Positions 33,548-64,000 are shown, counted from the stretch's first letter. The stretch is DNA of 64,000 nucleotides from Escherichia coli (GCF_044324875.1 NZ_CP172185.1); one strand, 5' to 3'. Numbers and translations: made by a program. The notes: generated by a model not told the origin, from the letters alone.

Positions 33548-33796
33548 GGGTATTGCCGGATGCGCTGCATCCGGCAATCGGTGCCAAATGCCGGATGCAA
33601 CGCTGGCGCGTTTTATCCGGCCTACAATGAGCGCAACATACTGATCTATATGGTTTTATATGCCGGATGCAACGCTGGCGCGTTTTATCCGGCCTACAAT
33701 GAGAACAACATATTGATTTATATGGTTTTGTAGGCCGGATAAGGCGTTCACGCCGCATCCGGCGACAGGAGCCAAATGCCGGATGCAACGCTGGTT
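33548..33796. repeat. REP/BIME cluster with tandemly repeated units
   Basis: Palindrome ttgccggatgcgctgcatccggcaa, then repeated gccaaatgccggatgcaacgctggcgcgttttatccggcctacaatgag units and taggccggataaggcgttcacgccgcatccggc. Confidence 0.75.
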
Positions 33797-40114: not shown

Positions 40115-41062
40115 ATGCGTGTGTTACTGGCACCGATGGAGGGTGTACTCGACTCTCTGGTGCGTGAATTGCTGACCGAAGTTAACGACTACGATCTGTG
40201 CATCACCGAGTTTGTCCGCGTGGTGGATCAACTGCTGCCAATAAAAGTCTTTCATCGCATTTGCCCTGAGCTACAAAATGCCAGCCGGACACCTTCCGGT
40301 ACGCTGGTGCGCGTGCAGTTGTTAGGTCAGTTCCCACAATGGCTGGCAGAGAATGCCGCCCGTGCGGTCGAGTTAGGTTCCTGGGGCGTGGATCTCAATT
40401 GCGGCTGCCCGTCGAAAACGGTTAACGGTAGCGGCGGTGGGGCGACGTTACTCAAAGATCCCGAACTCATCTACCAGGGTGCAAAAGCGATGCGTGAAGC
40501 TGTACCGGCGCATTTGCCCGTCAGCGTGAAAGTGCGTCTGGGATGGGACAGCGGTGAGAAGAAATTTGAAATCGCCGATGCGGTTCAACAGGCTGGTGCT
40601 ACAGAGCTGGTGGTGCATGGGCGGACGAAAGAGCAGGGTTACCGCGCGGAGCATATTGACTGGCAGGCGATTGGCGAGATTCGCCAGCGGCTGAATATTC
40701 CGGTGATTGCCAACGGTGAAATCTGGGACTGGCAGAGTGCGCAACAATGCATGACGATCAGCGGATGCGACGCAGTGATGATTGGTCGCGGGGCGCTCAA
40801 TATTCCCAACCTGAGCCGGGTGGTAAAATATAACGAACCGCGAATGCCGTGGCCGGAGGTAGTTGCTTTGCTGCAAAAATATACCCGTCTGGAAAAGCAG
40901 GGCGATACCGGGTTATATCACGTTGCGCGGATTAAACAGTGGTTGAGTTATTTGCGTAAAGAATACGATGAAGCAACGGAATTATTTCAGCATGTTCGGG
41001 TGTTGAATAATTCCCCTGATATTACAAGGGCTATTCAGGCAATTGATATCGAGAAACTCTAA
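40115..41062 (+). CDS. dusC: tRNA-dihydrouridine synthase C
   Basis: Start at [13 protein letters not shown] (315 aa). Confidence 0.88.
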
Positions 41063-41103
41063 AAAACCATAGTGATGTTTTTTGACAATGTGTTAGCTCT
41101 TTA

Positions 41104-41364
41104 TCAATAGGCCGCACGGTTGTTTGGTGGCGTCAAAATCGCCGAGGCGTTCCCCGAAGGCCGGGGCAGCCCACATGGATGTGGGCTGAGGGCGCGTTTT
41201 ACAGGGATGTTACCTCGCGCCCGACCCGGTAGCCGTAAGGGATAAGCCGAGGGCACCGCGCAGCGGCGATTTTGTTCGCCAGAGCCCGGGGGTGCAGGGG
41301 GCGGCGGCGATTGGTCGCCCCCTGCGCGCTCCTTGCGCCAGTGATTATATGAAGCAATGCACAT
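41104..41364. repeat. GC-rich intergenic element with nested inverted repeats (unclassified)
   Basis: Hairpins cagcccaca-tgga-tgtgggctg and cagggggcg-N12-cgccccctg, flanked by long-range inverted repeat gcgtcaaaatcgccg / cggcgattttgttcgc. Confidence 0.4.
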
Positions 41365-41434
41365 GACAGGAGCGCAACAGGATGAGAGACTGAAATATTC
41401 TCGTTATTTTCGGATCTGATGACATTAATTAATT

Positions 41435-41518
41435 TTAAAATATCATCTTAAATACACCAGTCACCACCAGTAGCCCAATCAGGAAAATAATCAATACGGC
41501 CCAGAGTATAATTTTCAT
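41435..41518 (-). CDS. yohP: Small membrane protein YohP (27 aa)
   Basis: Minus-strand ORF MKIILWAVLIIFLIGLLVVTGVFKMIF; below the ORF-track length cutoff. Confidence 0.75.
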   Translation of the reverse strand: MKIILWAVLIIFLIGLLVVTGVFKMIF

Positions 41519-41741
41519 TGGCGTTCCTTTATTTGTGAGTGCTGAATAAGTATAGGAAAAAACGAAGCCCTTTGCCGTTATCCATAAACTATTAAGATAA
41601 ATCAGAAGATATCATTCACTTAGTGTATATTTTTCTGGATATGTCGTTTTATTGCCACTGATGTATTGCCACGCGAAACTAAAAAATATATCGCAACACA
41701 CGGTAATCTCCGCGCACCTTTTCTTACCTGATTATTCCCCC

Positions 41742-43178
41742 ATGAATCGTGATTCTTTTTATCCAGCCATCGCCTGTTTTCCGCTGTTACTGATGCTGGC
41801 CGGGTGTGCGCCTATGCATGAAACCCGCCAGGCGTTAAGCCAGCAAACGCCCGCTTCACAAGTTGACACCGCATTACCCACGGCGCTGAAAAATGGTTGG
41901 CCAGACAGCCAATGGTGGCTGGAGTATCACGATAATCAACTCACTTCATTAATTAACAATGCACTACAGAACGCACCGGATATGCAGGTGGCTGAACAGC
42001 GCATTCAGCTGGCTGAAGCCCAGGCGAAGGCAGTTGCCACTCAGGATGGTCCGCAGATCGACTTTTCTGCGGATATGGAGCGGCAAAAAATGTCGGCAGA
42101 AGGGTTAATGGGGCCGTTTGCTCTGAACGATCCGGCCGCAGGTACGACCGGTCCGTGGTACACCAACGGTACTTTTGGCTTAACGGCGGGCTGGCATCTC
42201 GATATCTGGGGAAAGAATCGGGCGGAGGTAACTGCTCGCCTGGGTACGGTTAAAGCACGAGCGGCGGAACGCGAGCAAACCCGCCAATTGCTGGCTTGCA
42301 GCGTAGCCCGCCTGTACTGGGAGTGGCAAACCCAGGCGGCGTTAAACACTGTCTTACAGCAAATCGAAAAAGAGCAGAACACCATTATCGCCACCGATCG
42401 CCAGCTATATCAGAACGGGATTACTTCTTCAGTTGAAGGTGTGGAAACCGATATTAATGCCAGCAAAACCCGGCAGCAGCTCAACGATGTCGCGGGGAAA
42501 ATGAAAATTATTGAGGCACGGTTAAATGCACTCACAAATCACCAGACAAAGTCATTGAAGCTTAAATCGGTCGCATTGCCGAAAGTGGCAAGCCAGCTTC
42601 CTGATGAACTGGGGTACTCCTTACTGGCGCGGCGGGCAGATTTGCAGGCGGCGCACTGGTACGTTGAGTCATCGCTAAGCACCATTGATGCGGCAAAAGC
42701 GGCATTTTATCCTGACATCAACCTGATGGCCTTCCTGCAACAGGATGCGTTGCACTTAAGCGATCTGTTCCGTCATTCCGCGCAGCAAATGGGCGTTACG
42801 GCAGGCCTGACGCTACCCATTTTCGATAGTGGTCGTCTTAACGCCAACCTCGATATCGCAAAAGCCGAAAGCAACTTGTCTATCGCCAGCTACAACAAAG
42901 CGGTGGTTGAAGCGGTGAATGACGTGGCGCGGGCAGCCAGTCAGGTTCAGACACTGGCGGAGAAAAACCAGCATCAGGCGCAAATTGAGCGCGATGCCTT
43001 GCGTGTAGTAGGTCTTGCGCAGGCGCGCTTTAACGCGGGCATCATTGCCGGTTCCCGCGTCAGCGAAGCCAGAATCCCGGCGCTTCGCGAGCGGGCCAAT
43101 GGCCTGTTATTGCAAGGGCAGTGGCTGGATGCCTCCATTCAACTCACCGGTGCGCTGGGCGGGGGTTACAAACGCTGA
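41742..43178 (+). CDS. mdtQ: Outer membrane efflux lipoprotein (NodT/OMF family), intact reading frame
   Basis: Start at MNRDSFYPAIACFPLLLMLAGC (lipobox); 478 aa uninterrupted. Confidence 0.8.
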   Translation: MNRDSFYPAIACFPLLLMLAGCAPMHETRQALSQQTPASQVDTALPTALKNGWPDSQWWLEYHDNQLTSLINNALQNAPDMQVAEQRIQLAEAQAKAVATQDGPQIDFSADMERQKMSAEGLMGPFALNDPAAGTTGPWYTNGTFGLTAGWHLDIWGKNRAEVTARLGTVKARAAEREQTRQLLACSVARLYWEWQTQAALNTVLQQIEKEQNTIIATDRQLYQNGITSSVEGVETDINASKTRQQLNDVAGKMKIIEARLNALTNHQTKSLKLKSVALPKVASQLPDELGYSLLARRADLQAAHWYVESSLSTIDAAKAAFYPDINLMAFLQQDALHLSDLFRHSAQQMGVTAGLTLPIFDSGRLNANLDIAKAESNLSIASYNKAVVEAVNDVARAASQVQTLAEKNQHQAQIERDALRVVGLAQARFNAGIIAGSRVSEARIPALRERANGLLLQGQWLDASIQLTGALGGGYKR

Positions 43179-43230
43179 TGATATACGCGTCCTATACTTA
43201 ACGTTTATTCAGCGTTAAGTGGAGAACTCG

Positions 43231-43992
43231 ATGGCACAGGTCGCGATTATTACCGCCTCCGATTCGGGGATCGGCAAAGAGTGCGCGTTATTACTGGCGC
43301 AGCAGGGGTTTGATATTGGTATTACCTGGCACTCTGATGAAGAAGGGGCAAAAGATACCGCGCGTGAGGTGGTTAGCCACGGCGTAAGTGCGGAGATCGT
43401 GCAGCTGGATCTCGGCAATCTACCAGAAGGGGCACTGGCGCTGGAGAAACTCATTCAACGGCTGGGGCGTATTGATGTGCTGGTGAATAATGCGGGCGCA
43501 ATGACCAAAGCGCCGTTTCTTGATATGGCTTTCGATGAGTGGCGCAAGATTTTTACCGTTGATGTCGATGGTGCATTTTTATGCTCGCAAATTGCTGCCC
43601 GCCAGATGGTGAAACAAGGGCAGGGCGGTCGCATCATCAACATTACGTCGGTGCATGAACATACGCCGCTGCCGGATGCCAGCGCCTACACAGCCGCTAA
43701 ACATGCGCTCGGTGGGTTAACCAAAACGATGGCGCTGGAGCTGGTCAGGCATAAGATTTTGGTGAACGCAGTCGCACCTGGGGCGATCGCCACGCCAATG
43801 AATGGCATGGATGACGGGGATGTGAAGCCCGATGCGGAGCCTTCGATTCCCTTGCGGCGTTTTGGCGCAACGCATGAGATTGCCAGCCTGGTGGTGTGGC
43901 TTTGTTCGGAGGGCGCAAATTACACCACTGGGCAGTCGTTGATAGTGGATGGCGGCTTTATGCTGGCGAATCCGCAGTTCAACCCAGAATAG
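43231..43992 (+). CDS. yohF: Short-chain dehydrogenase/reductase
   Basis: Start at MAQVAIITASDSGIGK (253 aa), SDR Rossmann motif. Confidence 0.85.
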   Translation: MAQVAIITASDSGIGKECALLLAQQGFDIGITWHSDEEGAKDTAREVVSHGVSAEIVQLDLGNLPEGALALEKLIQRLGRIDVLVNNAGAMTKAPFLDMAFDEWRKIFTVDVDGAFLCSQIAARQMVKQGQGGRIINITSVHEHTPLPDASAYTAAKHALGGLTKTMALELVRHKILVNAVAPGAIATPMNGMDDGDVKPDAEPSIPLRRFGATHEIASLVVWLCSEGANYTTGQSLIVDGGFMLANPQFNPE

Positions 43993-50807: not shown

Positions 50808-50833
50808 AGGGCGCGACGTTTGCGCCCTTTGCC
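50808..50833 (+). terminator. bglX terminator hairpin
   Basis: agggcgc-gacgtt-tgcgccct followed by ttgcc. Confidence 0.55.
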
Positions 50834-50871
50834 TGATGTTCATATCTTAACTTGCTGAATTTTCGCCCTTT

Positions 50872-50906
50872 GTAGGCCGGATAAGGCGCTCGCGCCGCAT
50901 CCGGCA
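50872..50906. repeat. REP element
   Basis: gtaggccggataaggcgctcgcgccgcatccggca. Confidence 0.55.
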
Positions 50907-51048
50907 GGAAACGCCGGACCGAATATGCCTCTTAAGTATTTATCTGATTCTGCAACTGAATCCGTCCGCTCAGGCTAACTCTGTCATTATCAACTATGCT
51001 TTTCTCTTAATTCGCTGAAAACAACAGTAAAAGAATGAGGAAAGCATC

Positions 51049-54932: not shown

Positions 54933-55616
54933 TTAAATGCCGAGTGGGAAAATATCATGGCCTTGTTCCTGCCAACTGGTAAGTTGCTGCTGTTGGGCGG
55001 AGGTTCGATTTTCACCGCACCACACCAGCAATGTACGGCCTTCGAACAGTTCAGGGCGTAGTTGATTGAGCGAGTGGGCGAGGACATCAATGCGCCATCC
55101 TTGTTGACTGGCAATCCAGCCCTCCAGCCATAGACGGGTGGTATCGTGAATATTCCAGCCAACCACCAGCGCATCTTTACCCTGTTTTTTACGTGCCGAA
55201 GCCAGGCAAATGGCGATGTAGTTGATCAGTACGCCGTCAAGGATCGCCAGCAGCGCCTGGAGGGTCGGTTGTTGGCACTGAAGTCGTCGGCGCAGAGGAA
55301 TAAACAGATGCGTGGTGAGTGTCTGGGCAGGGTAATCCTGACCGCGCTCTTTGATCCACGTTCGCAGGCTATGCAGATTGCCGCTTTGCAGGTAAGTCAG
55401 TAATGTTTCTTGCTGATCGCGCCAGCCGTTCTGCACATCAACATTTTCATTACTGAGCAGCATTTTAACTTTGCTGACCTGCACGCCGTTGTCGATCCAG
55501 CGTTTGATCTCGCGGATCCGGTCAATATCGGCATCGTTGAACAGCCGATGGCCGCCGTCTGTCCGTTGCGGTTTCAGCAATCCGTAACGCCTCTGCCACG
55601 CGCGTAACGTGACAGG
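54933..55616 (-). pseudogene. mlrA: MerR-family regulator MlrA (YehV) lacking its 5' end, interrupted by prophage insertion
   Basis: Reading frame matches MlrA from ...PVTLRAWQRRYGLLKPQRTDGGHRLF to C-terminus FPLGI; upstream in frame the expected N-terminus (MALYTIGEVALLCDIN) is absent and a stop lies at 55650-55652; no ATG start. Confidence 0.8.
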
Positions 55617-55654
55617 GATTAAGGGTAAACTAACTGATTTTACAAGTTTTTATT

Positions 55655-56941
55655 TTACCCCACTTTCTTATGGGGCATACATGGGACACTTTCAGATAGT
55701 CTTTTGTTAAGGAGTTCTATCTGTTCGTGATTGTTGTCTTTCATCCATGCTCCGTAAACATTGAATACCATTTGTGCGTTTGTGTGGCCCATCTGGCTTG
55801 CGATAAAACTAGGATTAGCTCCAGCGGCAAGTGACCAGCATGCATAAGTATGCCTGGATTGGTACGATTTTCTGTGTCTCAGACCTGCGCGTTTTAAGAT
55901 ACTTGTCCATGACTCCCTGATGGAGTCAACCTTATAGTGCGGTCCGGAAAACTGCCGCTGTTTTATTACCTGAGGACTAAAAACAAAAGTGCATTTATGC
56001 ACAGTACTTCTCCCATATTCCCTCTGCTTTACCTCTACAGAATGTTGCTTTCCAAGCATGGTCATTTCCGCCTGACTTTTAAGAGCATCAATAGCTGGTT
56101 GAACCAGATGAATTGTCCTTCCGGTGCCAGCATCGGTTTTTGGTGGAGTGAATTCGCCAAGTTTTGTATAATTCCTACGGATGGTTATAGTCCTTGCTTT
56201 AAGGTCTATATCTTCCCATGCCAGCGATACCAACTCCCCGTGACGAATACCCGTGTATACAGCGAGAATCCACAGGTTTTTTGTTTGTTGATGACGGCAA
56301 GCCTCAATAAAACGAATAAATTCGTCACGGGTGAGAGGATCTGGTTTTACCTTGGACTTTTTTAAGGGAGCCAGACCGTTAAATGGGTTTCCTGAGGTAT
56401 AACCATTATCTGTTGCAAATTGAAACATTCCAGCTATGGTTGTCATATAGTAGTTTACCGTGACCACTGAGCGCCCTTTTATGGAAGAAGTCTTTCCATT
56501 AGAAAGCTTTTGGTAACCGGTCAACAAATCTCTCCTTACGAAAAGTAAATCCTCTTTTGTTATGGATGAAACCAGTTTTTTTTCACCTAACATTGGTAAC
56601 ATGTTTTTAATTACTGACTGGTAACGGTTAAGTGCATTCGCACAAATCTCAATTTTCTTAAGGTCCAACCATTTTTCCGAAAGTGCCTTAACGGTTATCT
56701 CTCTTTTTCCCAGACCAAAGTGTTTCAGGTTAGGGGAATTAGGGAACTGCGCGGCGTAGTCGAAACTCCCCATTCTGATTGCAAAACAAACGGAAGTGCG
56801 AAGTTCACCTGCGATCTTCCGGTTTTTGGCGGTGTCAGGAACACCGAGGTTTTCTCTGACACGTTTGCCATTATAGTGAAACCATATACGGAGTGATCCT
56901 CCATGGTTTTCAACGCCTGTCGGGTATGATACGTTACTCAT
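55655..56941 (-). CDS. int: Phage tyrosine integrase
   Basis: 428 aa; conserved boxes TGIRHGELVSL and HRKSYQSRHTYACW ... VYGAW; SD gggagg; 3' end faces the att junction. Confidence 0.88.
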   Translation of the reverse strand: MSNVSYPTGVENHGGSLRIWFHYNGKRVRENLGVPDTAKNRKIAGELRTSVCFAIRMGSFDYAAQFPNSPNLKHFGLGKREITVKALSEKWLDLKKIEICANALNRYQSVIKNMLPMLGEKKLVSSITKEDLLFVRRDLLTGYQKLSNGKTSSIKGRSVVTVNYYMTTIAGMFQFATDNGYTSGNPFNGLAPLKKSKVKPDPLTRDEFIRFIEACRHQQTKNLWILAVYTGIRHGELVSLAWEDIDLKARTITIRRNYTKLGEFTPPKTDAGTGRTIHLVQPAIDALKSQAEMTMLGKQHSVEVKQREYGRSTVHKCTFVFSPQVIKQRQFSGPHYKVDSIRESWTSILKRAGLRHRKSYQSRHTYACWSLAAGANPSFIASQMGHTNAQMVFNVYGAWMKDNNHEQIELLNKRLSESVPCMPHKKVG

Positions 56942-56974
56942 TAAACCTCCCAGACGTCCAGGAGCATTAACAGG

Positions 56975-57229
56975 TTAACCGGAACTTGCATTTTTGGCAC
57001 CTGGTTGTTTCTGGTTTTCGATCCATCGCATAATTTCTTCGATGTTGTACAGGCATTCACTGTAGTGCCCCGGATCACCTTCTACAGCGTAATGGCGGTA
57101 TTCTTTTCCCTGCATCCATGACTTTCTTCTTGCCCGCTCAATGGTGCCAGGCTTTAGCCCTGTTGATGCAATGAGGACTCTCTCCGTACACCATTTGCTG
57201 GGGGTTATCTGATAGATGATTGTCTGCAT
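56975..57229 (-). CDS. Putative excisionase / small DNA-binding protein
   Basis: 84 aa immediately upstream of int in the same operon, basic, SD gagg; function inferred from position only. Confidence 0.45.
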   Translation of the reverse strand: MQTIIYQITPSKWCTERVLIASTGLKPGTIERARRKSWMQGKEYRHYAVEGDPGHYSECLYNIEEIMRWIENQKQPGAKNASSG

Positions 57230-57247
57230 GCCAACCTCATAAAATTT

Positions 57248-57382
57248 TCATCCACGGCAGTGGCACCACACATCAAACATTCGCTTCACAACTTCACGAC
57301 AGTAGAAGCCGTCAACATCTCGCGTCAGGTCATAGCGATTGCCATAACGCTGGCGCACCCATAGTTCAAATGCTTTATTCAT
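57248..57382 (-). CDS. Candidate small Cys/His-containing protein (45 aa)
   Basis: MNKAFELWVRQRYGNRYDLTRDVDGFYCREVVKRMFDVWCHCRG; starts 3 nt after the stop of the upstream gene; not in ORF track. Confidence 0.3.
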   Translation of the reverse strand: MNKAFELWVRQRYGNRYDLTRDVDGFYCREVVKRMFDVWCHCRG

Positions 57383-57385
57383 TCT

Positions 57386-57628
57386 TTACTTCCTTTTCAT
57401 GGCCCGTAATTTTTTCAGATGAGCTTCCTGCTCTGTTTCTGCCAGAATTTGTCGGTATTCCTGGTGATCGAGCCGTTCAAACAGTTCATTAAAATCGTTT
57501 ATTTTTACCGACTGTGTTCTCCCATCCATTCTTCTGTACAACACAGTGTTGTTTATGCAGCGAATAATTTTTACCGGGTAGCCAGCACTATCGGTGTATA
57601 TCTGACCACGTTGAATCAGAGCGAACAT
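57386..57628 (-). CDS. Hypothetical phage protein (80 aa)
   Basis: Track ORF, same orientation as the operon. Confidence 0.5.
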   Translation of the reverse strand: MFALIQRGQIYTDSAGYPVKIIRCINNTVLYRRMDGRTQSVKINDFNELFERLDHQEYRQILAETEQEAHLKKLRAMKRK

Positions 57629-57715
57629 TCCTTTATCCCCAGCGGAAAAGCGAATACAGAATAAATGCCACCGCTATTGCAACTCCTACTGCGGTGAATG
57701 CTTCAGGCCAATTCA

Positions 57716-58345
57716 TCATTTCACCTCCACGCCGATCCCGGCAATAACACAATCCCGTTTGATAGCTTCTTTCACCCAGCGTTTATAGGTTTCCGGATGG
57801 AATTTTGCGTTTTTTCCGGTACCGCTCCAGAATGCCTTTGATGTGATATCGGGCAGGGTGATGGTCAGGCCTTTCTTCTTGCTGCCTTCAGAACTTTTGC
57901 AAAAAGTTAATGCGTCGCGTAGTTCTTTAACACACGCATAGTTTTCTGCTTTCTCTGGGTCGCCGGTACGGTGTTCAGCTTCTTGTCTGCACCATTTGAT
58001 GACTTTCTCTGCGGCTGCGTGGAGACGCTGACGTTGCCAGTCGTATGTGTCGACCAGCCCATATGCGTGATTCTTTGCTTTGCTTAATTCAGCGACGAGG
58101 CATTCGGAATCAATCAAATTATTTTCCGCAGCGGACAGCGCTTGTTTAAGTCGCTCGATTTCTTGAGCCATGTAGTAGCCGGTTTTACTCCAGGTATCGA
58201 CATCATCGTCACTCATATCCAGTTCCATCGACGCCATCAGAACGGCGTCGTGATAGTTCTGGCTACCGCAGGTGATTGCAACGACGTAGGAGTCACTATT
58301 TTCTCGTTTATGGATAAGTACAACTGGGTTTTTGATCTTGCTCAT
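57716..58345 (-). CDS. Hypothetical phage protein (209 aa)
   Basis: Track ORF; no recognisable motif. Confidence 0.55.
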   Translation of the reverse strand: MSKIKNPVVLIHKRENSDSYVVAITCGSQNYHDAVLMASMELDMSDDDVDTWSKTGYYMAQEIERLKQALSAAENNLIDSECLVAELSKAKNHAYGLVDTYDWQRQRLHAAAEKVIKWCRQEAEHRTGDPEKAENYACVKELRDALTFCKSSEGSKKKGLTITLPDITSKAFWSGTGKNAKFHPETYKRWVKEAIKRDCVIAGIGVEVK

Positions 58346-58353
58346 TCCGCACC

Positions 58354-58449
58354 TCAGTAATTCATTAAAAATTTATATTCAATCAGCGCACCGAAAACGA
58401 CGGACGCCAGCAGCAGACCAAACAGCATGGACAGGAGGAATGACTTCAT
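58354..58449 (-). CDS. Candidate small hydrophobic protein (31 aa)
   Basis: MKSFLLSMLFGLLLASVVFGALIEYKFLMNY; ATGA start/stop overlap with the upstream 74-aa gene; not in ORF track. Confidence 0.3.
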   Translation of the reverse strand: MKSFLLSMLFGLLLASVVFGALIEYKFLMNY

Positions 58450-58670
58450 CGCTTTGCCTCCCGCTGTACGATTTTGTAGGCGCGCAGGATGTCGCGTGTT
58501 TTTCCTGACAACGATGACTTAACCCAGAAAAAGCCGCTGCGGTTTTCATAGATCCCCTGTACATTAAACAGCACCGCATCAACAACGCGGTTATGCTTTT
58601 GCAATGTCAGGCAGGAACTGGTGATCACGATGTTCGCTACGGCGCCATAGTCCTTGTATTGGATTTTCAT
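58446..58670 (-). CDS. Hypothetical phage protein (74 aa)
   Basis: Track ORF; start abuts the stop of the 112-aa gene. Confidence 0.5.
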   Translation of the reverse strand: MKIQYKDYGAVANIVITSSCLTLQKHNRVVDAVLFNVQGIYENRSGFFWVKSSLSGKTRDILRAYKIVQREAKR

Positions 58671-59009
58671 TTACATGTTCCCCATAACGGTATCGCTCAT
58701 GTCGTTAACCATGCTCTGCCAGATTTCTTTGCCGCTTTGCGTCAGCTCGTTTCCACGAACGCATTTGCTTAACAGCTGAATACCAACGGCTTCCCATTGG
58801 GGGTAATTTTCTTTGATAGCCTTCAGAGCATAACCATCGATTAAATCCCTGATACCTTTAACCCCACCGATGATGTTTACTCGTATGGATTGCCCATTGA
58901 CATTAATCATGAAATGATCTCCGTTGGTGGCGGATATGTGGTTGTGCAGTGCAGCCGCATACTGATTTGCCAGCGCATTGAGGCGGAAATTTTGTGTAAT
59001 GAGTGGCAT
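58671..59009 (-). CDS. Hypothetical phage protein (112 aa)
   Basis: Track ORF; TAATG overlap with the upstream ORF6N gene. Confidence 0.5.
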   Translation of the reverse strand: MPLITQNFRLNALANQYAAALHNHISATNGDHFMINVNGQSIRVNIIGGVKGIRDLIDGYALKAIKENYPQWEAVGIQLLSKCVRGNELTQSGKEIWQSMVNDMSDTVMGNM

Positions 59010-59755
59010 TATTTACCCTCCCAACCAATCACCTGAAACAGCCCCATTTTCGGGTGATACCAGCGGGTACCGCGTGGCTCTGCCTCTGACATCATCTGAT
59101 GAAATGCTTTCATGAACGGCTCAAGCTCCACGATAGCCCGGCGAGAAAGAAGACCATCTGGCGTCATAAATTCGTGCGTATCGGTTGGGATGCTGTAGGC
59201 ATTGACCAGATTGCGGCACTTGGCATCAGTCATTCCGCTTTTGGCGACCACCTGGCGATAACCGACATATCCGGCGCGCATATTTCCGCGTTTGATGTTC
59301 TCCACAGCTTTGGTGACCGTTTCGATCTTCTCTTCAACATGACTCAGGCGCTTCTGCTGGCGAACGGCATCGGCGGCCATTGCAGCGATCATCTCCATTT
59401 CCGTCAGCGGCGCGTGAGTTCGGAAATAGCTGTTAACCAGTTCGCGCTGAACCTGCCATGCAAGAGTATCGTTAAAAGGCTTCGTCAACATCAGGTAACC
59501 AGACTCGAAAAGAATGATCCCTTTGGCAGTTCGCGCGGCAAAGGCATCAGAAAGTGACTCCGTACGTATTACGTCCGCAGTCATTTCAAGAAAATCCACC
59601 CCTTCGATAAAGTGAGAACGGTTGCGGTTAAACGCAGCACGGGCGGTACCTTCCGGGCGCTGGTGGACGTCATCAATCATTGCAAATGTCACAACACGCT
59701 GACCGCGATATTCGATTACCGGAAACTGTTTGTTGTTGATGGTTACAGTATTCAT
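59009..59755 (-). CDS. ORF6N/KilA-N domain protein (antirepressor-like)
   Basis: Start at MNTVTINNKQFPVIEYRGQRVVTF..IDDVHQRPEGTA (SD ggag 7 nt upstream); N-terminal pattern typical of ORF6N/KilA-N DNA-binding domain. Confidence 0.6.
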   Translation of the reverse strand: MNTVTINNKQFPVIEYRGQRVVTFAMIDDVHQRPEGTARAAFNRNRSHFIEGVDFLEMTADVIRTESLSDAFAARTAKGIILFESGYLMLTKPFNDTLAWQVQRELVNSYFRTHAPLTEMEMIAAMAADAVRQQKRLSHVEEKIETVTKAVENIKRGNMRAGYVGYRQVVAKSGMTDAKCRNLVNAYSIPTDTHEFMTPDGLLSRRAIVELEPFMKAFHQMMSEAEPRGTRWYHPKMGLFQVIGWEGK

Positions 59756-59798
59756 TTTTATCTCCAGACAGCCCGGCGTGTAATACCGGGCATATGTA

Positions 59799-60626
59799 TT
59801 ACTTAACCTGAATAAATGGTGTGTTGGCACCGCTGGTCATGTATTGCGGCAGTGTACCGTTCCACTTGTTGATGGCTTCCAGCTCCATAACGTTTGGGTT
59901 CTGGCGCAGAGCTTCACCGCGTAAACGAATAGCATCGGCTTCGGCCTGGGCTTTTGTGCGAATCGCATCTGCCTGTCCGGCAGCTTCCGCGCGCAACATG
60001 TTGGCTTCCGCTTCGCGCTGTTTTACTTCCTGCTCGCGTTGCAGGGTTTTCTGGTTGGCCGTGACTTTGGCATTAATGCTGTCGATAACAGTAGGCGGGT
60101 ACTCCGGCTTACCCACATATGAGAGGCTCATTACCTGAATACCGATGGGCGTCATTTCTTCCTGAATGTCTTTAAGAGCTGCATCCAGCAGCTCAGACTT
60201 GCCGCCGTCGATAAATTTGTCGGTGGTCATTTTGCTGGCCAGTCGGTTGAGTGCGTCGGCTATCTTCTGGCGCAGGTCGGTGTCGGTAATGTCGTCCACG
60301 CCTTTGCGGTAGGTCTGAAAGACTGTGGTAACTTTGGATGGATCAACTTTGTAGGCCACGCCGATGTGATAGCCGATGGTTGTACCGTCACTCATCTGGA
60401 AACTGAATGGATCATCGTAGGTCTTCATCTGCTTAAAGGTCGGGAAGATGTAAACCTCAGTGTTCCATCCCGTCCAGTAGCGCCCAACACCGACCACTTC
60501 ACCGACGCCTTTATCGTCGCCCAGTTTGTTTACTTTGATGCCCACATTACCAGGCTCAACGCGATCGCAACCGACAAGGCCAATGGTCGGCAGAACAATG
60601 GCTAAAGCAAAAAGTAATTTTTTCAT
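59799..60626 (-). CDS. SPFH/band-7 (prohibitin/HflKC-like) lipoprotein
   Basis: 275 aa; signal peptide with lipobox LVGC; SPFH-type core and C-terminal coiled-coil QREQEVKQREAEANMLRAEAAGQADAIRTKAQAEADAIR. Confidence 0.7.
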   Translation of the reverse strand: MKKLLFALAIVLPTIGLVGCDRVEPGNVGIKVNKLGDDKGVGEVVGVGRYWTGWNTEVYIFPTFKQMKTYDDPFSFQMSDGTTIGYHIGVAYKVDPSKVTTVFQTYRKGVDDITDTDLRQKIADALNRLASKMTTDKFIDGGKSELLDAALKDIQEEMTPIGIQVMSLSYVGKPEYPPTVIDSINAKVTANQKTLQREQEVKQREAEANMLRAEAAGQADAIRTKAQAEADAIRLRGEALRQNPNVMELEAINKWNGTLPQYMTSGANTPFIQVK

Positions 60627-60811
60627 CTTTTATCCTTAGAAAAAGAAAGACCCTTATAAATGGCATAAATGCAGGGCGGGGTCAGACACGCCAGAGCAAA
60701 GCCAGAAATCACTGCTATCGTATCCTTCATGGATATAAGGAACGGAACGAGTAATCCGTAAATGCATGCGATAATTGCCAGTAAAATTACTATTGTGAAA
60801 TACAGTCTCAT
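60623..60811 (-). CDS. Small two-TM membrane protein coupled to the SPFH gene
   Basis: 62 aa MRLYFTIVILLAIIACIYGLLVPFLISMKDTIAVISGFALACL...; 4-nt start/stop overlap with the SPFH gene. Confidence 0.55.
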   Translation of the reverse strand: MRLYFTIVILLAIIACIYGLLVPFLISMKDTIAVISGFALACLTPPCIYAIYKGLSFSKDKR

Positions 60812-60987
60812 TGGTCTGTGGTATCCCGATATTTTTAACCGACTGACAGCGCAATAAAGAGAATAATGATTTCTGTTAGTGTCAGCACTGTGGCAAGGAT
60901 TAAAATCAGTTTTACTCTGTTTAATTCACGGTTGCTTTTCATATAAACGGTTAGTAAAAAACGGAAGAATTATTTTCTTCTTAATAT

Positions 60988-61569
60988 TTAATGTGTCACT
61001 GGCGCTTCTGGCATACCATGAGTATTCAGGTCGTGAATCATTTCATCCAGAAGGAGTTCAAGCCCTTCGCGCCCCATAGCAGAGAGAATGAAACCATTAT
61101 CAGGATCTGCGATGAGCATTTTTTGATAGAGAAACAGAACTCGCCCCATGCCTTCAGTTTCGCCATATTTTTCAATAAATCCCCATTCGACATGGTTTTG
61201 CAGGGCAATGCGAAGTGGTCCTGGGTATATACTTATGCAACCATGTTTCCCCTTGTAAATAACTGCGCGATCTGTCGTCCCGTTATCGTTAGGGATATCA
61301 ATAGTGCCGTTCTTGTCTTCCTCTTCACTGATAAACTTCATCACATACAGCCAGCGCCACTGAGCAACCTTCAGATCGACTGAAAATCTTCCCAGCAATC
61401 CGGCATCATCAGCTTCGGCAAGACATTGCATGATTCTTAAACCGTGCCAGTATGGATTATCGAATTCGCCATCATTAAGCCGCTGTACGGCCTGAATATA
61501 ATTAATGGTTGTATTACCAATTTTTATGCCATGTGGCGTTACTTCTGGTCGGAACTCTGAATGATTCAT
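60988..61569 (-). CDS. Hypothetical phage protein (193 aa from MNHSEF; track ORF extends to 61626)
   Basis: ATGA overlap with the upstream 67-aa gene if it starts at 61569. Confidence 0.5.
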   Translation of the reverse strand: MNHSEFRPEVTPHGIKIGNTTINYIQAVQRLNDGEFDNPYWHGLRIMQCLAEADDAGLLGRFSVDLKVAQWRWLYVMKFISEEEDKNGTIDIPNDNGTTDRAVIYKGKHGCISIYPGPLRIALQNHVEWGFIEKYGETEGMGRVLFLYQKMLIADPDNGFILSAMGREGLELLLDEMIHDLNTHGMPEAPVTH

Positions 61570-61769
61570 AATATTTGCTCCTTTGCTGGTGGAATAATCG
61601 TGTAGCCAGCTCTTTTTGCCATCCACAGAAATGTATCCATGCAGCCAACGAATTCATTATCCAGCAGATGTTTTGAGTAAATTACTTCACCATTTTCAAT
61701 GGTTAGCAACACTCTTACTTTTTTATGTGTTATGTTTTGTTGTTTTTCTTCCATTGACTTATCTCCCAT
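61566..61769 (-). CDS. Hypothetical phage protein (67 aa)
   Basis: Track ORF; alternative start MEEKQQ at 61754. Confidence 0.45.
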   Translation of the reverse strand: MGDKSMEEKQQNITHKKVRVLLTIENGEVIYSKHLLDNEFVGCMDTFLWMAKRAGYTIIPPAKEQIL

Positions 61770-61950
61770 ATGCTTTGCGCAAATACAGGTTGGCTATATG
61801 AAGATAAGAATCTCCATGTTGTGCAATGAGGCAGGCAGTTTTATACGATGCCTTATGTTTCAGGAAAGTCATAACATAATCTCCTGCGAATAAAGGTTGC
61901 AACAATCCCCGGCGATAAAACCGTAATAAACATTCAGGGAATATTTATTG

Positions 61951-62316
61951 TTATTGCGCTAATTCTTTTTCGGCAGCAGATTTTGCATATTCACATGCAA
62001 AATTCAGAATTTCGCTGCCAAGTGTTTTTGTTTCGTGATTACTGGACATATGTAATACCTGTGTTGCATGCAATAAATGATAAACATTTACCGCAAATGA
62101 GTCCGGCTCCAGACAAATGCCTTCATAATCATCTTGTTGTGAGGTTGTTTCTGTCATTGCTCCTGAAGTGCATGCGAGCCTGTTTTTGACAATTCTCTTT
62201 CCTCTAATCACTATATCGGCAACATCTATTGCCTTTACAACCTCCGGGAGAAGTTCCGGGTTTGTATAATCAAAGTCATCAACATGGAGAACAGTTATGT
62301 TTTCGAACTTTTTCAT
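61951..62316 (-). CDS. Hypothetical phage protein (121 aa)
   Basis: Track ORF with SD gaggaag upstream. Confidence 0.5.
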   Translation of the reverse strand: MKKFENITVLHVDDFDYTNPELLPEVVKAIDVADIVIRGKRIVKNRLACTSGAMTETTSQQDDYEGICLEPDSFAVNVYHLLHATQVLHMSSNHETKTLGSEILNFACEYAKSAAEKELAQ

Positions 62317-62444
62317 GGCTTCCTCAGCTGACTTATATGTTCTGCTATATAGCGAGTCTCAGAAGTGTTTTCATATTGAGACTGTTTCCGCAATGATTGA
62401 TAAAAATGTTCGCATGTACCTTGAGGGGCGAAGCGGCGATTATG

Positions 62445-62903
62445 TCACCATTGGTATTGGTTCTTCCGTAGAAGAGCTTCGCGAGATAAGGAGCAAACTT
62501 GTTGAGATGCGTCATGGTGTTGCTGCTCCTCACTTTTTGGTTGCTCCGGAGGAGTAACCTCGCCAGTTAACAGCCACATCGGATCACAGCCAAGAACATT
62601 AGCCAGAGGGATAATCTGGCTTGCCAGAGGCTCCCTCTTGCCACTTTCCCACTGGATGATAATTTCTTCATCGAGATTGAGCAGCCTGGCGAGTTCGGCG
62701 GTTGTTAAGCCGCAGGCTTCGCGTTGGGTGTCAATAGAGCGATATTTTTTGTTTCCAGAAGGTAACAGAACACGTTTTATCTGTTGGATTTTTTCTATTG
62801 CAACTTCAATGAGTATGTTGCGGTTTCTTTCTGATGCAGACTCCATGCTTTCATGAAGTAGTGATTCTGCTTGTTCGATAAGAATCAGTTGTAAAGAAGA
62901 CAT
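62445..62903 (-). CDS. HTH (XRE/Cro-type) domain protein immediately downstream of cI
   Basis: 152 aa; central segment LTTAELARLLNLDEEIIIQWESGKREPLASQIIPLANVLGCDPMWLLTG is a typical XRE helix-turn-helix; SD gagg. Confidence 0.6.
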   Translation of the reverse strand: MSSLQLILIEQAESLLHESMESASERNRNILIEVAIEKIQQIKRVLLPSGNKKYRSIDTQREACGLTTAELARLLNLDEEIIIQWESGKREPLASQIIPLANVLGCDPMWLLTGEVTPPEQPKSEEQQHHDASQQVCSLSREALLRKNQYQW

Positions 62904-62911
62904 AAGAAAAC

Positions 62912-62946
62912 CTCGTAACCAACATTTCGAAATCTAGGTTACGAGT
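62912..62946. promoter_or_regulatory. Palindrome between cI and the downstream HTH gene; candidate operator or terminator
   Basis: ctcgtaacc-N17-ggttacgag (9-bp arms); spacer contains gaaatctaggtt, which recurs in the cI-cro intergenic region. Confidence 0.4.
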
Positions 62947-62988
62947 GAGTAATGTAGGTGTCAAGTGTAATTGATAATTTTTTGTTGA

Positions 62989-63648
62989 TTAAATTTGCAT
63001 ACGCATCTCAACGACAACACCAAGAATTTCACAATCGCCATTGATAGGGATCAGTGGATAGCGTGGGTTTAGTGGTTTTAAGAAACATTGTCCTGCGTCT
63101 TCAATGTACTGTTTGAGGGTTGCTTCACCGGAATTTTTGAGTCTAGCGACAACATATTTTCCTGAAAAAACTTCTTTGTCAGGGTTTACAAGAATGTTCA
63201 TGCCTTCAAAGATTGAGAACTCCCCATTCTGTGACGTCATTGAGTCACCTTTTACCTCCAGCCAGAATCCGTTATCTCCTGCATATATATCGCTACCGAT
63301 CCAATCTTCTGGATAAGGTATGTAATCTTCGCAGTTCCAAGGGCCGGCGCTCACCCATGTTAATTTTGGGTATCTGTAACGCGTTGGAGAAGCTGGTTTG
63401 GGGTTTCGAACGTTTTGAATACTATCTGTAGGTGAAGGTTCGCTACCATCAAGGAGCCATTTAGGTGAGCATTTTAATGCATCTGCGATCCTGAATAGGT
63501 TTGACGATCTTGTGTCTTGTGAGTCTCCTAACTCTATTTTGCTGATTGTTACACGTGAGACACCCGTCAATTTTGCCAGGTCATCTTGTGACATGCCTAG
63601 CTGAACTCTACGCATTAACAATCTCTGTCCAAAACTATCGTGTTCCAT
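62989..63648 (-). CDS. cI: CI-type phage repressor (HTH plus LexA-like S24 peptidase domain)
   Basis: 219 aa; N-terminal HTH MSQDDLAKLTGVSRVTISKIELG; C-terminal domain with GDSM serine motif and downstream lysine. Confidence 0.8.
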   Translation of the reverse strand: MEHDSFGQRLLMRRVQLGMSQDDLAKLTGVSRVTISKIELGDSQDTRSSNLFRIADALKCSPKWLLDGSEPSPTDSIQNVRNPKPASPTRYRYPKLTWVSAGPWNCEDYIPYPEDWIGSDIYAGDNGFWLEVKGDSMTSQNGEFSIFEGMNILVNPDKEVFSGKYVVARLKNSGEATLKQYIEDAGQCFLKPLNPRYPLIPINGDCEILGVVVEMRMQI

Positions 63649-63661
63649 CTTTTCTCTCCGT

Positions 63662-63746
63662 TGTCGAAATGATTTTTTCGAAACAAATATATCAAAAAAT
63701 ATTGAAATCTAGGTTTCGCAAAACTAAGATTGTTCGAAACAAACGT
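63662..63746. promoter_or_regulatory. Divergent cI/cro promoter-operator region with repeated TTCGAAAC-type sites
   Basis: tgtcgaaat, ttttcgaaacaaa, gaaatctaggtttcgcaaaac, tgttcgaaacaaacg between the divergent starts. Confidence 0.5.
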
Positions 63747-63758
63747 GTCGAGGTCGAT

Positions 63759-63968
63759 ATGGATTTGTATGAAATTCTAAAAAACATATTTGGTTCGAAT
63801 GTTGAGATCGGTCGCCATTTTCCCCGAAAGGGAAGGGCTAGAACTGGACAGGCTGTAGGAAAGTGGAAAAAACAAGGGGTACCGGAGGATGTAGCGATTC
63901 TTTGCCATCTGGATCCCGCAATTCCTTATCAGCATCCGCCTCTCACGAACGGTAGTAATGGCGTATGA
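63759..63968 (+). CDS. cro: Cro-like small DNA-binding regulator
   Basis: 69 aa MDLYEILKNIFGSNVEIGRHFPRKGRARTGQAVGKWKK...; divergent from cI, SD gagg; start chosen at internal ATG of a longer track ORF. Confidence 0.55.
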   Translation: MDLYEILKNIFGSNVEIGRHFPRKGRARTGQAVGKWKKQGVPEDVAILCHLDPAIPYQHPPLTNGSNGV

Positions 63969-64000
63969 AATCTCTCCGGAGGGCTGTATGTCCCAGAGTT

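Follow-up and report, generated by a model that had tools for sequence, protein, structure and literature searches.

Among the described outer membrane factors (OMFs), the family closest to MdtQ is that of MdtP (YjcP), the OMF of MdtNOP, which is likewise a lipoprotein of the NodT type. The mdtP gene belongs to the mdtNOP operon, whereas mdtQ (formerly yohG) has no adjoining adaptor or pump gene. TolC has a channel-tunnel architecture like that of the MdtQ model (query-normalised TM-score, or TMq, of ~0.67-0.70, at 12-13% identity), but TolC is not a lipoprotein, and MdtQ, unlike TolC, carries a lipobox. The best solved relative is VceC of Vibrio cholerae (1YC9), which is encoded beside its partners in VceCAB, a system that we take to be of a non-RND kind; MdtQ, in contrast, is an orphan. 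In this company mdtQ is one of the four TolC-like OMF genes of E. coli. An intact mdtQ frame has already been reported in E. coli, in a paper that cites the UniProt entry of the O157 protein, Q8X659 (PMC11762307), and nothing substantive separates the gene described below from that E. coli MdtQ (family NF008524): gene, locus and length of 478 amino acids are the same.

The DNA analysed here ("the window") is a stretch of 64,000 nucleotides from E. coli (GCF_044324875.1, NZ_CP172185.1). Its mdtQ coding sequence, recognised from the ORF, the sequence and the matches to NCBIfam NF008524 and Pfam OEP as that of an OMF lipoprotein of the NodT family, occupies 41742..43178 on the plus strand, from the ATG at 41742-41744 to the TGA at 43176-43178. 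Its 1437 nt comprise 478 codons and a stop, with no internal stops; by simple arithmetic, the chance of such an open frame is roughly (61/64)^478, or about 1e-10. A first-pass annotation of the window had described a single uninterrupted 478-codon ORF that carries a lipoprotein signal, and both are there: the ORF can be read in the raw sequence as well as in the ORF listing, and the signal is seen as a lipobox (L-A-G-C) with its cysteine at residue 22. The best explanation of the locus overall, to which we assign a probability of roughly 0.9, is an ordinary wild-type mdtQ that specifies an OMF lipoprotein whose partner pump would be encoded elsewhere.

The copy in E. coli K-12 is different. 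In the MG1655 sequence (NC_000913.3) mdtQ (b2139; 1436 nt, 2227323-2228758) is annotated as a pseudogene, and this annotation, together with the alignment, confirms the statement in the first-pass annotation that the K-12 gene is disrupted. Global alignment of the two genes gives 97.8% identity, with 31 substitutions and one gap, and that gap, the only length difference between them, comes from the loss of 1 bp from an A-run in K-12. Where the window has five A residues (A5, 41889..41893, plus strand), K-12 has four (A4), as found by alignment with NC_000913.3 and by searches with diagnostic 45-mer and 44-mer queries. The K-12 frameshift is located in this one missing A, and the supposition that K-12 might share the intact frame falls with it. 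The K-12 frame is shifted at codon 50 and meets a stop some 20 codons on, and residues 51-478 fall in the other frame, cut off from the signal peptide. The window protein further differs from the K-12 copy by S39A, C186G, N262S, H267N and S276P (window residue first). With A5 and a single open frame, the window gene lies outside the K-12-type disrupted class.

The K-12 lesion is very recent, since mdtQ of the wild human isolate 50EVAW is intact and is a single synonymous change away from the frame-repaired K-12 gene. The K-12 lineage dropped one A from the A5 run at codon 50 in a recent frameshift of the slippage type. A perfect 6-bp inverted repeat (TTGGCC...GGCCAA, 41897-41912) lies directly 3' of the run and might favour slippage there.

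The in-frame allele is the common one. The A5 and A4 queries were 45 nt and 44 nt in length, and each 28-mer megablast seed had to cross the A-run; of 5426 complete E. coli genomes, 5012 (at least 92%) were found to carry A5 and 355 to carry A4. Among the 60 A4 genomes listed (of 355), all are K-12 laboratory derivatives (MG1655, BW25113, DH5alpha, DH1, W3110-type, C600, J53, JM109, MC4100 and similar) apart from EcN_Sk. An intact 1437-nt mdtQ coding sequence is annotated in nine of nine sampled non-K-12 genomes that have no IS insertion in the gene (GMF054, 50EVAW, TUM1886, C288, PE15, ERL04-3476, E24377A, Seattle 1946 and EC5654), and the exact 478-residue protein is present on 185 contigs, the longest of 5.75 Mb, as [quoted passage not shown]. 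The gene is occasionally lost in other ways: IS421 has inserted into it in OkiPb01701, and MRE162 has a deletion (6% coverage). Two contrary propositions, that wild E. coli are mostly mdtQ-disrupted and that K-12 stocks bear A5, were checked and contradicted. The window carries the ordinary intact wild-type allele and K-12 is the exception, as was already known; the intact frame is a mark of a non-K-12 strain and represents no gain of function. A non-K-12 background, as the first-pass annotation had it, is evident both from the 97.8% identity of mdtQ to K-12 and from a prophage at mlrA.

The exceptional strain in the A4 group, EcN_Sk (NZ_CP172017.1; L023, 1374-2809), has a genome of 5.05 Mb and came from human stool, and its mdtQ is annotated as "frameshifted". 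The gene shows no differences from K-12 mdtQ, which suggests a K-12-derived or hybrid origin for this region or for the strain as a whole; an independent second A4 event was rejected, the gene being base-for-base the same as in K-12.

The start of the gene deserves comment. The mechanical ORF around mdtQ reaches upstream to a TTG at 41652, for a product of 508 amino acids. This longer protein was rejected, as its signal peptide would be buried and the conserved start is the ATG. That ATG 41742 is the true start follows from the conservation of ATGAATCGT and of the N-terminus MNR(D/N)S in Salmonella and Citrobacter, from the signal peptide that starts there, and from PGAP, which gives 478 amino acids in all genomes sampled. 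MdtQ database entries of 508 amino acids (e.g., P0004, P0005 and P0009) begin at the upstream TTG, so that the signal peptide is preceded by 30 extra residues; these entries are probably start-site mis-annotations.

The lipoprotein signal peptide, as read from the translation, is encoded at 41742..41807 on the plus strand and ends in the lipobox L19-A20-G21-C22. The N-terminus is MNRDSFYPAIACFPLLLMLAG-C22, with the Cys22 codon (TGT) at 41805-41807 and Ala as the +2 residue. The corresponding lipobox is LLAGC in Salmonella and LMAGC in Citrobacter, and Cys22 is invariant among 40 aligned MdtQ homologues with identities down to 26%; the mature protein is predicted to begin with this residue in acylated form. 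Under the Lol rule of E. coli, lipoproteins with a +2 residue other than Asp go to the outer membrane. The MdtQ precursor would be cleaved and acylated at Cys22, as predicted, and then undergo Lol-dependent sorting to that membrane.

Assignment of the protein to its family is unambiguous by profile scores. MdtQ matches its own equivalog, NF008524 (NCBIfam), at 1022.9 bits (cut-off 650), with residues 1-478 aligned to positions 1-478 of a 478-position profile, and it exceeds the threshold of the NodT OMF subfamily TIGR01845 (271.6 bits, cut-off 210), with the lipobox Cys present. The second-best NCBIfam match is the MdtP family NF007390 (354.5 bits, under its cut-off of 597), and scores for the AdeK (125 bits) and CusC-type (99 bits, under a cut-off of 598) families are lower; at 54.7 bits against the TolC subfamily TIGR01844 (cut-off 225), MdtQ is a relative of TolC but is not a TolC. 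Two tandem repeats of Pfam OEP (PF02321) are present. A sequence search against solved structures returned VceC (1YC9) as best match (E = 1.4e-39; MdtQ residues 51-477 at 25% identity), followed by OprM, SilC, CmeC and CusC. An AlphaFold2 model built from a 40-sequence alignment (mean pLDDT 82, pTM 0.76) shows four beta-strands (105-116, 139-153, 325-336 and 348-357) and four very long helices (158-224, 230-265, 359-431 and 437-472), and the predicted fold is that of a canonical OMF protomer with two repeats of strands and long helices. With Foldseek the model matches VceC, CusC, OprJ, OprN, SilC and OprM at TMq ~0.70-0.76; for VceC the values are E = 3e-23, TMq 0.72 and TMt 0.83. By homology to VceC, CusC and OprM, MdtQ would trimerise to form a beta-barrel and a periplasmic alpha-helical tunnel, and this tunnel would dock the hairpin tips of an adaptor and so serve as exit duct for an inner-membrane pump encoded elsewhere.

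The gene is conserved well beyond E. coli. MdtQ orthologues of 478-479 amino acids occur throughout Salmonella and Citrobacter at ~80-82% identity and in E. albertii at 94%, and the orthologous locus in Salmonella and Citrobacter has the order dusC, (yohP), mdtQ, (yohF), yohD, yohC, pbpG, dld, bglX. In the window mdtQ likewise lies between dusC/yohP and yohF/yohD, neighbours that are shared with K-12, GMF054, Salmonella and Citrobacter. Nei-Gojobori dN/dS for mdtQ is 0.05-0.15 among E. coli alleles and 0.05-0.07 when E. coli, Salmonella and Citrobacter are compared with one another at a dS of ~1.6-2.5, which indicates strong and long-standing purifying selection. The window gene looks functional. 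The suggestion in the first-pass annotation of a possibly functional OMF with no assigned partner gains support from the dN/dS values, the signal peptide and lipobox, the OMF fold and the lack of a nearby adaptor or pump gene.

The divergent intergenic region between yohP and mdtQ (41520..41741; 222 bp) is AT-rich, at 37% GC vs 55% for mdtQ, and presumably contains the mdtQ promoter. No sigma-70-like promoter was detected in it; the sole plus-strand candidate nearby, at 41419-41446, belongs to a count that does not exceed that in shuffled sequence. The literature likewise describes the mdtQ promoter as lacking experimental confirmation (PMC11762307). No Shine-Dalgarno sequence precedes the ATG (41720-41744) in E. 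coli, Salmonella or Citrobacter, and the region is C-rich instead, with start contexts ttcccccATG in E. coli, acacctccATG in Salmonella and tatctccATG in Citrobacter; upstream of the start, cgcaccttttcttacc is partly conserved across the three genera. These features suggest that translation initiation on mdtQ is unusual or weak. Given the missing Shine-Dalgarno sequence in three genera and the lack of a promoter above chance, expression may be low or conditional. A search for an mdtQ-specific terminator gave one hairpin, on the minus strand at 41912-41897 by the A-run, which is within chance expectation, and no Rfam family was found in 40900-43500 at E <= 0.1.

Such weak signals bear on whether mdtQ is intact but cryptic, a relic that is kept yet effectively unexpressed, and as dispensable as K-12 shows it to be. 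The absence of a Shine-Dalgarno sequence upstream of the ATG in all three genera is what such a relic might display, as are promoter-like sites near the gene that are no commoner than in shuffled sequence and the losses by frameshift in K-12, by IS421 in OkiPb01701 and by deletion in MRE162, all with no obvious harm; the function of MdtQ has, moreover, been described as "not elucidated" (PMC11762307). We nevertheless regard a cryptic gene as very unlikely, because the low dN/dS (0.05-0.09), maintained up to a dS of ~2, cannot be squared with long-term neutrality, mdtQ stays in frame in at least 92% of genomes, and the context of the start codon is itself conserved. Less credible by far is that the frame only seems intact through a miscall of A5 for A4 in K-12-like sequence. 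The A5/A4 difference does sit in a homopolymer, the classic site of sequencing error, but the other 31 substitutions relative to K-12 within mdtQ alone, the presence of A5 in 5012 independent complete genomes and the occurrence of the same protein on 185 contigs refute this reading and leave it a negligible chance.

The surroundings of mdtQ in the window, and the Salmonella and Citrobacter loci, were searched for a gene for an adaptor or a pump; none was found, and the lack of a linked pump in three genera implies that the orphan arrangement is older than their divergence. To find the likely type of partner, 1.84 billion cluster representatives were searched exhaustively with phmmer, and the contigs of the nearest non-orthologous clusters were then inspected. 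In five of seven informative contexts, these nearest non-orthologous relatives (35-41% identity) are encoded directly after a FUSC pump gene. Three of them (P0141, 41%; P0142, 37%; P0143, 35%) are the last gene of an operon of ytcA, an AaeA-like adaptor, a FUSC pump and the OMF, which is also the architecture of E. coli mdtNOP (ytcA, adaptor, FUSC, OMF), and two others on short contigs (P0139, 41%; P0144, 36%) lie directly 3' of a gene with a Pfam FUSC match. The remaining two (P0147, 39%; P0151, 38%) have an MFS transporter on one side and an adaptor of the EmrA/HlyD type on the other. An RND pump was found beside none of the seven.

The second FUSC system of E. coli is aaeXAB, and in one tabulation of efflux systems the entry reads "AaeAB-?", with a question mark for the outer-membrane partner (PMC8277102). 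From the contexts of its relatives, from MdtP as closest paralogue family and from AaeAB having no assigned OMF, the most likely class of partner for MdtQ appears to be an AaeA/EmrA-type adaptor with a FUSC pump (AaeB/MdtO-like), a reading drawn from only seven contexts, metagenomic or genomic, of relatives at the level of paralogues; an MFS pump seems less likely. The narrower proposal, that MdtQ might supply the outer-membrane channel for a FUSC-type pump whose gene lies elsewhere in the chromosome, with AaeAB as the leading candidate, is possible but doubtful. A literature search for papers that pair mdtQ with aaeA or aaeB found none. AaeAB is active in MG1655 (PMC11481567), and as mdtQ is broken in that strain, MdtQ cannot be strictly required for AaeAB.

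It has also to be considered that MdtQ might have no dedicated FUSC partner and act instead as a reserve outlet for pumps that depend on TolC, whether of the RND or another type, such as AcrAB and EmrAB. The MdtQ model shares its OMF fold with OprM, OprJ, OprN and CusC, which serve RND pumps, and two of the seven relatives are encoded beside an MFS pump and an EmrA-type adaptor. Null mutants of mdtQ are reported to have phenotypes with puromycin, acriflavine and tetraphenylarsonium chloride, and acriflavine and puromycin are typical substrates of multidrug pumps (PMC11762307); if these phenotypes were obtained in K-12, they are hard to reconcile with the status of mdtQ as a pseudogene there. 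This general role is unlikely. RND pumps are missing from all seven informative contexts; VceC, the closest solved relative, comes from a non-RND system; and after MdtQ itself, family scores fall in the order MdtP (354 bits), AdeK (125), CusC (99) and TolC (55).

For efflux research, K-12 is atypical at the mdtQ locus, and studies based on K-12 are uninformative on MdtQ function. Transfer of annotation from K-12 would also mislabel a conserved and selected gene as a pseudogene in wild strains. Should MdtQ work with AaeAB, the role may have been overlooked as nearly all E. coli efflux genetics has used frameshifted K-12, and specialists in efflux would find a partnership of MdtQ with a FUSC pump moderately interesting. 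The possible FUSC-type partner is the only new point here, and a modest one, the rest of the mdtQ result being already known.

Genes on either side of mdtQ are those of other E. coli genomes, in the order dusC, yohP, mdtQ, yohF, yohD, yohC, pbpG. Divergent from it on the minus strand is yohP (41436..41519), for a small membrane protein of 27 amino acids that is annotated at the equivalent site in all genomes inspected. Downstream is yohF (43231..43992, plus strand), identified from its ORF, the sequence and the annotation of related genomes as a gene for an SDR-family oxidoreductase with a GGAG ribosome binding site of its own. It starts 52 nt 3' of mdtQ on the same strand with no terminator-like site between the two, and mdtQ and yohF may be co-transcribed; as yohF is missing from the Citrobacter mdtQ locus, the linkage is not obligatory. 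For P0135, a 60%-identity cluster representative, the contig is too short for an informative context, but the downstream neighbour has a weak SDR match (adh_short, 25 bits, below the gathering cut-off of 26.6), a hint that this context is the orthologous yohF locus. Some neighbouring genes are pseudogenes in wild isolates: an internal stop interrupts yohF in Seattle 1946 (L021) and yehM in GMF054 (L004, 45270-47549).

The gap between dusC (yohI) and yohP holds another kind of element. A repeat of the TRIP1c type has been described there, at 363 bp before the start of yohG and 43 bp past the stop of yohI, and TRIP1 copies are described as substrates for chromosomal rearrangements (PMC10888264). 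In the window these published distances, from which alone the bounds were derived, would put the GC-rich repeat at approximately 41106..41378 (no strand assigned), where a GC-rich block is seen. A spurious antisense ORF of 86 amino acids at 41104-41364 is explained by the GC-rich block at the TRIP1c position.

The wider window belongs to a lineage that is apparently absent from the 5426 complete genomes searched. Among RefSeq complete E. coli genomes, the best identity is 98.9% over 41500-43400 and ~98.5% over the 24 kb of 30000-54000, which also agrees with a non-K-12 background. From ~55617 to 64000 the window contains one end of a lambdoid prophage, which interrupts the 5' end of mlrA (yehV), and this prophage is absent from GMF054, the closest complete genome. 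Its integrase ORF (55655-56941, minus strand) is a tyrosine integrase by similarity, and genes for an excisionase, an SPFH protein and an ORF6N protein were also recognised by similarity; LH50-c, the best match of the segment, covers only 65% of it, at 99% identity. By comparison with the 243-residue MlrA of GMF054, the mlrA remnant covers 54933-55617 and has lost about its first 15 codons. Disruption of mlrA affects curli regulation, and yehV is where Stx1-type prophages classically integrate in O157:H7. Two further segments, 33598-33751 and 50830-50928, are missing from GMF054 and consist of REP/BIME-like palindromic units (GCCGGATG...CATCCGGC); that at 33598-33751 is a tandem duplication with a unit of ~75 bp.
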